Positions 16,251 through 19,115 of a stretch of DNA of 23,647 bases are shown here, piece after piece. Made by a program: the position numbers and the translations under genes. Position 1 is the first letter of the stretch, and every line of letters starts with the position of its first letter. This DNA comes from a virus (Duplodnaviria > Heunggongvirae > Uroviricota > Caudoviricetes), in IMG/VR virus record IMGVR_UViG_2609460344_000008; one strand, written 5' to 3'. The notes under the pieces are model-generated. The model had not been told where the DNA came from. It made no database searches and was given only the letters and a program-made list of their open reading frames with translations.

Positions 16251-16273
16251 CCCACCGTCAGGTGGGTTTTTTA
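16251..16273 (+). terminator. Terminator-like hairpin (CCCACC-GTCA-GGTGGG) plus T6 run after gpL
   Basis: Seen in sequence. Confidence 0.55.
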
Positions 16274-16297
16274 TAAGGAGTAATCATGATTTACCCA

Positions 16298-16834
16298 TCA
16301 AACAACCCACCAGTTTGCCTGATTGGATGCCAGCCTTGCAGTTTTTATGGAATTAATTATGCCATGCTCAAGAGCCTTGTTAGCATCCAAAATGGTCGAG
16401 TCTGCTATCAGGGATGCCCACCTAATATGGGTTCCGATGTCGATATTGAACGTCTCAACGAAGCGATCAAGATCGTTATCGAGGCATTTCCCGTACTCTC
16501 TCAATCTGGCATGGTCGGCGGCTGGGGAGGCAAAGCACCATAATAGAGGATGTAACAGGAATCTTGATAATGGGTTTGCGAAACGTTCTGAGCCAGCCAG
16601 GAAAACGATATTAGCTATGGATTCAACATTGCTTATGTTGTGAGTTCTAACGGTAACAGGGAGTGACTTAAGAAAGTTATACGCAGTAAAGCCAGCGGCA
16701 GTTTCCCCTCCCTGACTTGATATATGGATATTTAATTCAGTTGCGCCTTGAGATAATGCGGTGAGACAGTGGTTCTGAAGTTGCCCAACAGTGGCAGTGT
16801 TAACGGGGCATAAGAAATGAATTGTGTGCAGCAT
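16298..16834 (-). CDS. ClpP-fold (ClpP/S49-like) serine peptidase homolog, orphan, co-transcribed with the Mnt-like repressor
   Basis: ...ELNIHISSQGGETAAGFTAYNFLKSLPVTVRTHNISNVESIANIVFLAGSERFANPLSRFLLHPL... aligns by eye with the ClpP core (INSPGG..AG..IYD..PV.T...AASMG...LAG..GKR...P.SR.MIHQP), with candidate Ser and His retained; start ATG overlaps the upstream gene stop (TAATG). Confidence 0.6.
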   Translation of the reverse strand: MLHTIHFLCPVNTATVGQLQNHCLTALSQGATELNIHISSQGGETAAGFTAYNFLKSLPVTVRTHNISNVESIANIVFLAGSERFANPLSRFLLHPLLWCFASPAADHARLREYGKCLDNDLDRFVETFNIDIGTHIRWASLIADSTILDANKALEHGIINSIKTARLASNQANWWVV

Positions 16835-17082
16835 TATTTTTCATCCTTAGCATACATGGTCTTTAGCGTCTCAAGTAGCGCCTCTTTGAATTTATCAGCT
16901 TCTTGGTTAGCGAATCCTTCAAGTGAGCGAGAGCCATCAAGATTATCAACATGTTTTTGAAGGATAAGCACGATCTCTGAGTTCATTGATCTGCCGTTTT
17001 TATCCGCTTCTTGCTGAATGCGTTTCTTTAAATAGTCTGGAATCCTAATCCCCAATGGACTGATATCTCTTGCACCTTTCAT
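16834..17082 (-). CDS. Mnt-like ribbon-helix-helix repressor (P22 immI Mnt homolog); start placed at the internal ATG with GGAGGAGA RBS
   Basis: MKGARDISPLGIRIPDYLKKRIQQEADKNGRSMNSEIVLILQ... carries the RHH signature NGRSMNSE shared with P22 Mnt/Arc; track ORF extends to 17124 but the RBS supports 17082. Confidence 0.75.
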   Translation of the reverse strand: MKGARDISPLGIRIPDYLKKRIQQEADKNGRSMNSEIVLILQKHVDNLDGSRSLEGFANQEADKFKEALLETLKTMYAKDEK

Positions 17083-17091
17083 TTCTCCTCC

Positions 17092-17191
17092 TGCACGCTG
17101 TGCGTAGCTACACAGTGTAGGCAAAAAATTTTTGACTTTAAATAAACACGGTGTAGTATTTAGTTATCACGGTGTAGCAAGTGAGGTGGAA
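17092..17191. promoter_or_regulatory. Divergent promoter/operator region: imperfect palindrome TGCGTAGCTACACA (17101..17114); three CAC(A/G)GTGTAG repeats (17111..17120, 17148..17157, 17168..17177); candidate rightward promoter TTGACT (17132..17137), 16-nt spacer, TAGTAT (17154..17159)
   Basis: Seen in sequence between divergently oriented RHH repressor genes. Confidence 0.5.
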
Positions 17192-17332
17192 ATGAAAGTT
17201 AGAGACATCGCTCCATTAGGGATTCGTATCCCGCCAGAGATTAAAGAAAAATTGAAGGAAAAGGCTAAGGAGGAGGGCAGGTCTTTAAATTCAGAAATAG
17301 TGCAGCGTCTTATTCGCAGCCTAAAAAGTTGA
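17192..17332 (+). CDS. Arc-like ribbon-helix-helix repressor (46 aa); start at internal ATG with GAGGTGGA RBS
   Basis: [46 protein letters not shown] has the Arc-type RHH signature; track ORF from 17132 lacks an RBS. Confidence 0.72.
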
Positions 17333-17361
17333 AGCCCCAACTGCTGGAACAGTCGGGGCTT
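17326..17361 (-). terminator. Minus-strand intrinsic terminator-like hairpin (AAGCCCC.ACTG-CTGGAA-CAGT.GGGGCTT) followed on the minus strand by CAACTTTTT; candidate 3' end of a sar-like antisense RNA
   Basis: Seen in sequence between the arc-like and ant-like genes; a T-run follows only on the minus strand. Confidence 0.4.
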
Positions 17362-17393
17362 CGGTATCAACAAATCAGATAGGAATTATTGAT

Positions 17394-18323
17394 ATGGCAA
17401 GTTTAGCAAAGTCAACATTAAATTGCACTAACAGCATCACCATTTCAGACGTCAAGATTCATATGGATTCAGAGGGGCGTTACTCGCTTAATGACCTGCA
17501 CAAGGCATCAGGTAAAGAGCGTCGTCATGAGCCTGCTGCGTGGCTGCGACTCGAACAAACCAATGAGTTAGTTCAAGAAATTCTAAATACACAGATGTGT
17601 GTATTTAAAAATGGCGATAACTTTAATTCTTCAGAATCGCAGATTAAGAAGCCAATGGACTCTAAGAAGGGTCGCTACGGAGGCACCTACGTGTGCAAGG
17701 AGCTTGTTTACTCCTACGCCATGTGGATTAGCGCAGCCTTTGCGCTGAAGGTTATCCGTGCATATGACGCAATGGTTACTACCACACAAGAGAGGAAGGC
17801 TATTGGCGGTAAAACTTCAGTAGCTGAACGCACACCTCTACGCGATGCAGTAAACATGCTGGTAGGAAAGAAAGGACTTCGCTATGACGATGCATACAAT
17901 ATGGTTCATCAGCGTTTTGGTATTGACAGCATTGATGAACTTTCAATTGAACAAATCCCGCTGGCCGTAGAGTACATCCACAGGGTAGTGCTTGAAGGTG
18001 AGTTCATTGGCAAACAAGAGAAGAAAACCAACGAGCTTTCTGCAAAAGAAGCAAACAGCCTTGTATGGCTATGGGATTATGCCAACCGCTCACAGGCATT
18101 ATTCCGCGAACTGTATCCGGCGCTAAAGCAAATTCAATCGAACTATTCTGACAGGTGCTACAACTACGGCCATGAGTTCTCGTATGTTATTGGAATGGCG
18201 AGAGACGTTTTAATCAATCACACACGAGATGTTGATATTAATGAGCCAGATGGACCAACGAATCTTTCCGCATGGGTAAGGCTTAAGAGCAAAGAGTTGC
18301 CGCCTTCACTGCATCACTACTAA
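17394..18323 (+). CDS. KilA-N domain protein, putative antirepressor (Ant-like)
   Basis: N-terminus ...[47 protein letters not shown]...[35 protein letters not shown] resembles KilA-N; follows the arc-like gene as ant follows arc in P22 immI. Confidence 0.7.
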
Positions 18324-18342
18324 CAGATTACCAACGAAATGA

Positions 18343-18366
18343 CCCAGCCTCGGCTGGGTTTTTTAT
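18343..18366 (+). terminator. Intrinsic terminator (CCCAGC-CTCG-GCTGGG) plus T6 run closing the immI-like cassette
   Basis: Seen in sequence. Confidence 0.6.
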
Positions 18367-18377
18367 CAGGAGTTCTC

Positions 18378-19115
18378 ATGCTCTATAGCAATATATTGGC
18401 ACATGCCCGGCGGTGTGCGCCTGCGGAGTCGTGCGGCTTCGTGGTGAGAACGCCGGAGGGGGAGCGGTATATCCCTTGTGTGAATATTTCCGCAGAGCCG
18501 GAGGCGTATTTTCGTATTGCGCCGGAAGACTGGCTGCGGGCAGAGATGCAGGGGGAGATTGTGGCGCTGGTCCACAGTCATCCCGGTGGTCTGCCCTGGC
18601 TGAGCGAGGCGGACCGGCGGCTGCAGATAAAGAGTGCCCTGCCCTGGTGGCTGGTCTGCCGGGGTGAAATTCACCGGTTCCGCTGTGTGCCGCACCTGAC
18701 CGGACGGCGCTTTGCGCACGGGGTGACGGACTGTTACACGCTGTTCCGGGATGCTTATCATCTGGCGGGGACTGAAATGCCGGATTTTCATCGCGAGGAT
18801 GACTGGTGGCGCAACGGCCAGAACCTGTACCTGGACAATATGGAGGAAACGGGCTTTTACCGGGTGCCCCTGTCCTCTGCACAGGCGGGCGATATTCTGC
18901 TGTGCTGCTTTGGTGCTTCGGTACCGAACCATGCCGTCATTTACTGCGGCAACGGTGAGCTGCTTCACCATCTGCCTGAACAACTGAGTAAACGGGAGAG
19001 GTATTCCGAAAAATGGCAACGACGAACGCATTCTGTCTGGCGTCACCGCCACTGGCACGCATCTGCCTTCACGGGGATTTACAACGATTTGGCCGCCGCC
19101 TCAGCCTGTATGTGA
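18378..19115 (+). CDS. Tail assembly protein K (lambda gpK-like; JAMM/MPN plus NlpC/P60 domains); start at ATG 18378 with CAGGAG RBS
   Basis: JAMM motif HSHPGGLPWLSEAD (HxH-x7-S-xx-D) and later Cys/His NlpC-like region; the track start at 18339 lies inside the terminator. Confidence 0.82.
   Translation: MLYSNILAHARRCAPAESCGFVVRTPEGERYIPCVNISAEPEAYFRIAPEDWLRAEMQGEIVALVHSHPGGLPWLSEADRRLQIKSALPWWLVCRGEIHRFRCVPHLTGRRFAHGVTDCYTLFRDAYHLAGTEMPDFHREDDWWRNGQNLYLDNMEETGFYRVPLSSAQAGDILLCCFGASVPNHAVIYCGNGELLHHLPEQLSKRERYSEKWQRRTHSVWRHRHWHASAFTGIYNDLAAASACM

Follow-up and report, generated by a model that had tools for sequence, protein, structure and literature searches.

The interval between tail genes L and K in IMG/VR virus record IMGVR_UViG_2609460344_000008 (Caudoviricetes), a lambda-like Escherichia coli prophage represented here by a stretch of 23,647 nucleotides ("the window"), is occupied by ~2.15 kb of lower-GC DNA that closely resembles the immI region (mnt, arc, sar, ant) of Salmonella phage P22. 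With a probability that we put at roughly 80%, this region is a P22-type immI "ant moron" that moved into the tail-tip cluster of a lambda-like prophage through an old insertion between L and K, and whose present four-gene allele was swapped in later. The 25-bp near-repeat found at its two borders would then be a by-product. The kind of module is a textbook one, and both the ant moron and the L-K location are already known. An earlier note on this DNA, made from its letters alone, had described the region as an mnt/arc/ant-like cassette and had taken the near-repeat as a likely insertion or recombination scar; the evidence below bears out the first of these claims and separates it from the second.

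Gene content and homology to P22 immI

Base composition sets the region apart, with a GC content of 0.40-0.47 over approximately 16250-18350 vs 0.55-0.63 in the flanking L and K genes, in line with the AT-richer insert described earlier. The cassette contains four genes and one small RNA arranged in two divergent transcription units, namely an mnt-like gene followed by a ClpP-like gene on the leftward side and an arc-like gene followed by ant on the rightward side (Table 1). The same four genes appear in the RefSeq annotation of an identical copy in E. coli TOE17, all four cassette open reading frames (ORFs) are intact, and a Pfam domain search identified no transposase or integrase among them. 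The two divergent ribbon-helix-helix (RHH) genes and the KilA-N antirepressor-like gene listed in the earlier note are all present, the latter also encoding a P22_AR_C domain, and what that three-gene inventory had overlooked is the minus-strand ClpP-like gene and the sar RNA.

Similarity to P22 runs through most of the module. The Mnt-like protein, encoded divergently from arc-ant, includes an RHH domain, is 33% identical to P22 Mnt with 80/82 residues aligned, C-terminal part included, and matches phrog_2685, the P22 mnt family (8e-31). It also aligns with a 44%-identical Pectobacterium homologue which is itself a match to Pfam Repressor_Mnt. The Arc-like protein, encoded immediately upstream of ant, displays 43% identity to P22 Arc. 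It is also related to the neighboring Mnt-like protein, with 57% identity across the first 35 residues, DNA-reading strand included, and from their sequences the two proteins probably read the same half-site. In Ant, the C-terminal 170 residues are 85% identical to P22 Ant, next to an N-terminal domain that is unrelated. At the DNA level, window positions 17811-18364 match P22 positions 15481-16034 at 82%, and this match runs into the annotated ant terminator, which the P22 record places at 16012-16035. Together with a sar RNA scoring 67.6 bits, these comparisons uphold the P22 immI-like assignment.

The P22 RefSeq record (NC_002371) labels the mnt product (14519-14770) "partition protein ATPase". 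This label, seemingly an annotation error, also appears on PHROG 2685 and 795, the families matched by the Mnt-like and Arc-like proteins.

Table 1. Features of the L-K interval and its flanks, in window coordinates (SD, Shine-Dalgarno sequence)
Feature	Position	Strand	Basis or remark
Tail gene L, left flank	15543-16241	+	Pfam Phage_tail_L 1.1e-90
TGGATTATG, 9 nt specific to occupied L-K sites	16242-16250	+	Identical in all occupied lambda-like sites; 40/40 IMG/VR loci
Hairpin CCCACCGTCAGGTGGG + TTTTTTAT; terminator-like, putative left recombination homology block	16250-16274	+	Terminator scan
Stranded last codons of an older mnt, TAT AAA AAA CCC ACC TGA = YKKPT*	16258-16275	-	Direct reading
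3' flank of ClpP-like gene, with SD-ATG (AAGGAG..ATG at 16286)	16276-16297		Identical in P22-like contexts
85-codon ORF, exact codon-register antisense to 3' half of ClpP-like gene	16286-16543	+	Probably not a gene
ClpP-like serine protease, 178 residues, N-terminally truncated	16298-16834	-	Pfam CLP_protease 2.2e-11; RefSeq annotation
Mnt-like RHH repressor, 82 residues	16834-17082	-	Pfam Arc 6e-8
Divergent control region	17083-17191		Repeat finder and promoter scan
Candidate operator sites ACACGGTGTAG	three, within 17100-17180		Repeat finder
Arc-like RHH repressor, 46 residues	17192-17332	+	Pfam Arc 5e-13
sar antisense RNA over arc-ant spacer and ant ribosome site	17327-17392	-	Rfam RF00262, full length
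Antirepressor Ant, 309 residues	17394-18323	+	Pfam KilA-N 1.6e-22 (N-terminal) and P22_AR_C 3.8e-29 (C-terminal)
ant terminator, homologous to P22 t_ant	18341-18366	+	Terminator scan; DNA homology to P22 ends at 18364
New K SD, ATG (18378) and first 5 codons MLYSN	18367-18392	+	Junction alignments
Tail gene K, right flank	18378-19115	+	Pfam Prok-JAB and NlpC/P60; RefSeq start

Empty and occupied L-K sites

As stated in the earlier note, L and K normally lie next to each other in lambda-like tail clusters: this empty site is found in lambda, PhiR5_1, several Shiga toxin (Stx) phages, and ~905 complete E. coli records. It reads TAA-ATCCCGGTTT-ATG, i.e., ATCCC(GGTTT) after the L stop codon and then a K protein starting MTQTESAIL. 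Up to its stop codon, the window L gene is 96.9% identical to that of the empty-site phage PhiR5_1. The DNA from 16242 to ~18392 then stands in place of the 10-nt spacer and the first 7 K codons (MTQTESA), and homology to the empty-site K picks up again at ~18393-18397. The cassette is hence a genuine insertion relative to its empty-site relatives, as had been claimed. Alignment to these relatives also revealed that L and K are joined there through the 10-nt spacer and a different K start, not through a single copy of the 25-bp sequence.

Occupied lambda-like sites display a common left junction, in which TAATGGATTATG meets the hairpin, and a common right junction, in which T6AT meets CAGGA(G/T)TTCTCATGCTCTATAGCAATATA. 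These outer junctions are identical at the five loci compared and, across IMG/VR, at 40/40 loci on the left and 49/49 on the right. Because occupied sites have identical outer junctions, we favor one ancestral L-K insertion. At the right border, the AGGAG site of K directly follows the ant terminator, and the new 5' segment of K is preceded by t_ant in 49/49 IMG/VR contigs, so that no independent source of this segment was found. An in-frame ATG at 18339 (MTQ..., 13 codons upstream) was considered as a K start and rejected, as it lies in the stem of the ant terminator, has no SD, and is ACG in the P22-like copies. At the left border, the 9-nt TGGATTATG matches CGGTTTATG of the empty sites at 7/9 positions, which weakly suggests that it might be the old L-K spacer with the original ATG of K; a stranded K start would in that case be at 16248, not at 16286.

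Origin of the 25-bp near-repeat

The two 25-mers lie at 16264 and 18356 and match at 22/25 positions, exactly as reported in the earlier note. They are the only matches in the window at up to 3 mismatches, with 0 found in 100 dinucleotide-preserving shuffles. The match between these two 25-mers is thus non-random, but the class of motif to which they belong (hairpin, TTTTTTAT, SD, start codon) is generic, because the same design recurs at three more window junctions (2834-2878, 8942-8982, and 15506-15545). The similarity thus fits a generic terminator-RBS pattern, an outcome that the earlier note had itself set as counting against a scar. The first two of the additional junctions lie within the head/tail late operon and read GGTTTTTTTATTTTCAGGAGG..GTG and GGGTTTTTTATTATCAGGAGG..ATG, respectively; since they too combine hairpin, T-run, SD, and start codon, the design is common in this prophage. 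Outside of the T-run, SD, and ATG, only 3/6 remaining positions of the 25-mers match.

The earlier note had proposed that the terminator, ribosome-binding site, and ATG of K were duplicated upon insertion, with the 25-mers as the resulting scar and the ATG at 16286 as a stranded K start. The uniqueness of the 22/25 match in the window and the true insertion of the cassette relative to empty sites are what one would expect from such an event. However, the composition of the two copies, each of which can be traced to a different source, makes this scenario very improbable.

The left copy combines the last codons of an older mnt (first 12 bases) with sequence flanking the ClpP-like gene on its 3' side (AGGAGTAATCATG). 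The hairpin CCCACCGTCAGGTGGG is also found where P22 mnt ends, in the three-gene cassettes of Stx phages, and in P22-like E. coli prophages. In P22, the loop of this hairpin includes the stop codon of mnt and its T-run specifies the two lysines of LYKKTT*, while the Mnt of three-gene Stx-phage cassettes ends LLNKKPT* through the same hairpin. The SD-ATG half, for its part, is found at an equal offset from the ClpP stop codon in the Pectobacterium (80% amino acid identity) and Klebsiella (57%) homologues, and is missing from the left side of three-gene cassettes at the L-K site. Finally, the left 25-mer is conserved 25/25 in P22-like prophages that have the cassette flanked by genes for ejection proteins and the tailspike and lack a neighboring K, i.e., this copy pre-exists where K is absent. 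Wherever a ClpP-like gene follows, Mnt ends MY(A/G)KD(E/N)K; given this and the stranded mnt relic, we therefore consider that the ClpP-like gene inserted into the mnt 3' end.

The right copy begins with the T-run of the P22-type ant terminator (first 11 nt) and continues with the new SD and ATG of K, whereas P22-like contexts have a different sequence after the ant T-run (GCCCAAAATTCACCG...). We also searched for the single-copy junction from which a duplication would have started, using a query built from the L 3' end, the hairpin, T6AT, and the SD and start of K. This junction, GGGTTTTTTAT(C/A)AGGAGT..TCATG joining L to K, was not matched contiguously anywhere in 5,426 E. coli genomes or 50,697 phage records. 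The best matches to the query corresponded to the classical empty site only, with 83% coverage in two pieces, and the empty-site sequence is unrelated to the 25-bp repeat. The two 25-mers are thus alike because both are T-run/SD/ATG motifs, and we read their similarity as functional convergence combined with inherited immI ends, not as a scar.

Alleles, mosaicism, and history of the cassette

In E. coli CE10, FDAARGOS_1300, and WCHEC025943, as well as in Pectobacterium, P22-like prophages carry the same cassette at the canonical immI site, flanked by genes for ejection proteins and the tailspike. Homology between the window and the CE10 prophage begins exactly at 16251, and includes 0 mismatches over 16251-17302, 9 up to 18100, and 40 in the last 264 bp. 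Compared to the three-gene lambda-like cassette of Stx2a_WGPS8, the window is unrelated before ~18000 and near-identical after, with an Ant mosaic breakpoint near 18100. Because 1,052 bp are 100% identical to the P22-like prophage copy, exchange with such a prophage appears to have been recent.

Three-gene alleles were found at 33 IMG/VR loci, and the WGPS8 allele in 269 E. coli genomes. Alleles containing the ClpP-like gene were found at 7 IMG/VR loci, and 15/5,426 E. coli genomes matched at least 80% of the L-to-K query. The common three-gene Stx-phage form (locus L003, 2644-3811) has overlapping arc and ant genes, and in one five-gene form, from E. coli MS 196-1 (locus L018, 2247-2755), the ClpP-like gene is preceded by a tandem pair of Arc-family genes. 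The P22AR-C/terminator segment was detected in 1,134/5,426 E. coli genomes, and Ant has been reported in 126/279 Stx phages (PMC8136144).

These distributions are compatible with a history in three steps. A single old illegitimate insertion would have occurred right after the L stop codon, removing the L-K spacer and the first 7 K codons. Separately, in a P22-like phage, a ClpP-like gene would have entered the mnt 3' end and stranded the YKKPT* codons. The resulting four-gene allele would then have replaced a three-gene allele at the L-K site by homologous recombination, with the left crossover in the 24-bp hairpin/relic common to both and the right one within the ant C-terminal domain. From the pattern of identity, we infer that the window copy is such a recent allele replacement.

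That the cassette is a relic in decay, without function and merely carried along by the tail operon, would be a less eventful explanation, and is not without precedent: ant morons decay in some P22-like phages (PMC2629481), mnt is unexpressed in the Kapi1 lysogen (PMC12922286), and the cassette does include one stranded gene fragment, that of mnt. Yet its four ORFs are intact, its sar RNA scores above the gathering threshold, the stretch of 100% identity to a P22-like prophage copy implies recent exchange, and the cassette is found in deposited complete phage genomes, so that we regard passive decay as improbable.

Antisense RNA and the divergent control region

The sar RNA was identified with a score of 67.6 bits (E = 3e-13), above the gathering score of 43, and the annotated P22 sar, used as a positive control, scored 97.8 bits at its annotated site. 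The sar segment is a 93% DNA match to P22, and the terminator scan placed a sar terminator hairpin at 17362-17331. A predicted sar -10 box, TAAACT (17405-17400), would lie at the same offset inside ant as the TATACT of P22. In the three-gene Stx allele scanned (WGPS8), there was no match to Rfam sar.

Between the two transcription units, the control region includes 3 copies of ACAC(A/G)GTGTAG (17108-17120, 17146-17156, and 17167-17177), the first of which forms a perfect 6+1+6 palindrome. All three have the core CAC-G-GTG, also found at the center of the P22 mnt operator. Two copies 21 bp apart cover the -10 and +1 of the sole consensus rightward promoter, the predicted Pant (-35 at 17132-17137, -10 at 17154-17159), and a site also lies over the putative Pmnt. 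This arrangement makes the repeats candidate operators.

A ClpP-like gene nested in the cassette

The ClpP-like gene, whose start overlaps the mnt-like stop codon, encodes a protein whose closest solved relative is PpClpP1 (PDB 9UXT, E = 1.6e-35). Ser72 and His95 align with the catalytic S73/H96 of 9UXT, and the third triad position aligns with a Ser in ADSTIL, not the canonical Asp. Alignments start at residue ~23-32 of the window protein vs residue 43-57 of canonical ClpPs, and the N-terminal axial loops, by which ClpP (MEROPS S14) subunits dock ClpX/ClpA, are missing. PpClpP1, from Pseudomonas plecoglossicida, is N-terminally truncated as well, with a wide axial pore and low activity alone, does not bind ClpX, and forms more active mixed tetradecamers with canonical ClpP (PMC12900304).

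Homologues of the ClpP-like protein (52-97% identity) were found across Enterobacterales, and in 4/4 contexts examined (loci among L006-L014) the gene is prophage-borne and runs opposite to the operon around it. In Pectobacterium, it comes directly after Mnt within a P22-like immI; in Leclercia and Klebsiella, it stands alone between lysis and terminase genes; and in Proteus, it lies between N and the early-left operon. As judged from gene order and orientation, these contexts carry the signature of a lysogen-expressed moron.

The pairing of an RHH gene with a protease gene could alternatively reflect a self-contained toxin-antitoxin or anti-phage defense operon located beside arc-ant, in which the 82-residue RHH protein would act as antitoxin or regulator. 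The overlap of the two genes in one operon is reminiscent of type II toxin-antitoxin systems, the RHH protein has weak Pfam matches to antitoxin-type families (FitA-like, HicB), and the ClpP-like gene has the behavior of a moron that moves on its own and lies on the opposite strand, as is typical of lysogen-expressed accessory or defense genes. We nevertheless rejected this as an unlikely reading, because each partner occurs without the other: RHH homologues lack the protease in P22 and Stx phages, and the protease lacks an RHH partner in Leclercia, Klebsiella, and Proteus prophages. In addition, the alignment of the RHH protein to P22 Mnt is end-to-end, the predicted ant promoter is overlain by operator-like repeats, and PADLOC returned no match for either the ClpP-like or the RHH genes, its sole match being a weak and partial one to Ant.

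If the ClpP-like gene is instead a passenger of the P22-type module, wired to the Mnt promoter and belonging to an uncharacterized family of truncated-ClpP morons, its product could conceivably co-assemble with host ClpP and retune proteolysis in the lysogen, e.g., by clearing leaky Ant or proteins of superinfecting phages. We consider this idea, which extrapolates from PpClpP1, speculative and rather doubtful; if true, prophages would encode a novel type of modulator acting on host proteolysis or defense. Our literature search retrieved no account of this ClpP-like family, of its presence in ant morons, or of the PhiR12 phages, whose genomes include the same cassette (see below), and 9UXT led solely to the paper on the Pseudomonas ClpP1.

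The 3' half of the ClpP-like gene also overlaps the plus-strand ORF at 16286-16543, which the earlier note had accounted for by a stranded K start. Its exact codon-register antisense position (Table 1) provides a different explanation. The ORF matches phrog_7758 over its full length (1e-61), and has no Pfam match. It is open, with its SD-ATG kept, in Pectobacterium and Klebsiella, and is not in Leclercia or Proteus (2/4 diverged homologues). Third-position divergence between the window and Pectobacterium amounts to 24/81 in the overlap vs 58/97 outside of it, with no such drop for the other three homologues, and could reflect mosaic ancestry or else dual coding. That the ClpP-like gene also harbors, in antisense, the code for a small protein (phrog_7758) is a further possibility, although on balance the ORF is probably not a gene.

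Proposed mode of action

Based on P22 biology (summarized in PMC2629481), the cassette may be expected to work as follows. In the lysogen, the Mnt-like repressor would occupy the operators at the ant promoter and keep Ant off. Upon infection or derepression, this promoter would fire briefly, after which the Arc-like protein would shut Pant and the sar RNA would block the ant ribosome site. The resulting short pulse of Ant would bind and inactivate CI/C2-type repressors of its own or of co-resident lambdoid prophages. The terminator and promoter scans identified terminator-like hairpins at 16250-16274 and 18341-18366 and one consensus promoter; in the lysogen, the terminators at both ends would keep the cassette insulated. 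Late transcription modified by Q would read through both hairpins and allow the expression of K, I, and J, with translation of K relying on the ribosome site and start codon that the right border newly provides. The four-gene cassette is located between L and K in the deposited complete phage genomes PhiR12_1, _4, and _5 (listed host E. coli K-12/C), and is therefore probably compatible with tail assembly.

Several observations weigh against our interpretation or limit its reach. The window Mnt-like protein gives no Pfam Repressor_Mnt match even at E = 10, and its C-terminal homology is a matter of pairwise and transitive alignment. Ant may differ from P22 Ant in target specificity, because its N-terminal domain is KilA-N and not of the P22 type, and the resident repressor gene lies outside of the window. 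The promoters and operators are consensus-level predictions, and sites in the promoter scan are no more numerous than in shuffled sequence. Lysogens of Kapi1, a related P22-like phage of E. coli, gave no detectable mnt transcripts (PMC12922286), and the rules established for P22 may not fully transfer. As for the proposed history, the left crossover would have had just 24 bp of homology. Lastly, the left border of the three-gene cassette, TTTTTTAT-T-AGTAGTTCTC (locus L003, 2225-2246), resembles the right border, TTTTTTAT-C-AGGAGTTCTC (locus L003, 3847-3867; window 18359-18377), at 9/10 positions after a 1-nt slip. This left border is Mnt coding sequence (RELL), and its likeness to the SD region of K is unexplained and may be due to chance.

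Broader significance and other variable sites

Antirepressor modules let one prophage switch on others, and thereby affect induction and toxin release where an E. coli strain harbors many lambdoid prophages, Shiga toxin phages among them. The case described here suggests that such a module can pass between unrelated virion types (a P22-like podovirus and a lambda-like siphovirus), and then swap alleles via short conserved end blocks. It also serves as a warning that terminator/SD/ATG motifs at moron borders can mimic insertion scars. What we did not find stated elsewhere is the nesting of a ClpP-like gene in the mnt 3' end together with the relic stranded there, the precise mosaic ancestry of the allele, and the retention of sar in four-gene L-K alleles; these are details and do not amount to a new system. 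The sole lead beyond the textbook is the ClpP-like passenger, whose family is widespread in prophages.

Two other sites of the window have a variable gene content. Between M and L, which overlap in empty-site phages, lies a second moron, an OmpC-type porin gene (14208-15344, flanks 14006-15542; Porin_1 2.8e-142) with a GC content of 0.33-0.46. At its right border, a hairpin (15506-15522) is followed by TTTTTTAT, an SD, and the start codon ATG of L, i.e., the same design as the right border of the cassette. A third variable moron site is located between I and J, where E. coli TOE17, the closest relative, has sodC on the opposite strand (locus 7393-7920) and the window has ~240 bp (19694-19933).

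Comparison with known systems

The ClpP-like protein resembles PpClpP1 (9UXT) in being a short, N-terminally truncated ClpP paralogue with conserved catalytic Ser and His, and differs from it in that its gene is prophage-borne and co-transcribed with mnt, and in having Ser, instead of Pro, aligned at the third position of the triad. Like the morons of lambdoid phages, a concept associated with Hendrix and Juhala, the cassette lies between genes that are adjacent in relatives, has a differing composition and its own predicted promoter, and is flanked by terminator-like hairpins. Unlike these, it is a regulatory module instead of a single lysogenic-conversion gene, and has a second, ClpP-like moron nested inside.

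The GenBank-annotated L-K cassettes of Stx phages (Stx2a_WGPS8, 1717, YYZ-2008, and 2851) have the same outer junctions, K start (MLYSN), ant 3' end, and terminator as the window. In contrast to the window, they contain three genes with an arc/ant overlap and no ClpP-like gene, and have other mnt and arc alleles and another Ant N-terminus. The "ant moron" of P22-like phages was described as a variable, independently expressed late-operon insert around ant with high gene flux (Villafane et al. 2008, PMC2629481). The window allele is up to 100% identical to that of the E. coli CE10 P22-like prophage, whereas the 2008 description is limited to the gene 16-gene 9 site of podoviruses and mentions no ClpP-like member.

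Finally, relative to P22 immI itself, the site differs (gene 16/tailspike gene 9 in P22, L/K of a lambda-like siphovirus here), as do the KilA-N N-terminus of Ant and the extra ClpP-like gene after mnt. The Arc-like and Mnt-like proteins of the window also have nearly the same N-terminal DNA-reading strand, alongside three operator-like sites with one core, unlike in P22. Gene order and orientation, the mnt 3' hairpin, and homologues of Mnt, Arc, the Ant C-terminus, sar, and the ant terminator are features that the window has in common with P22 immI.

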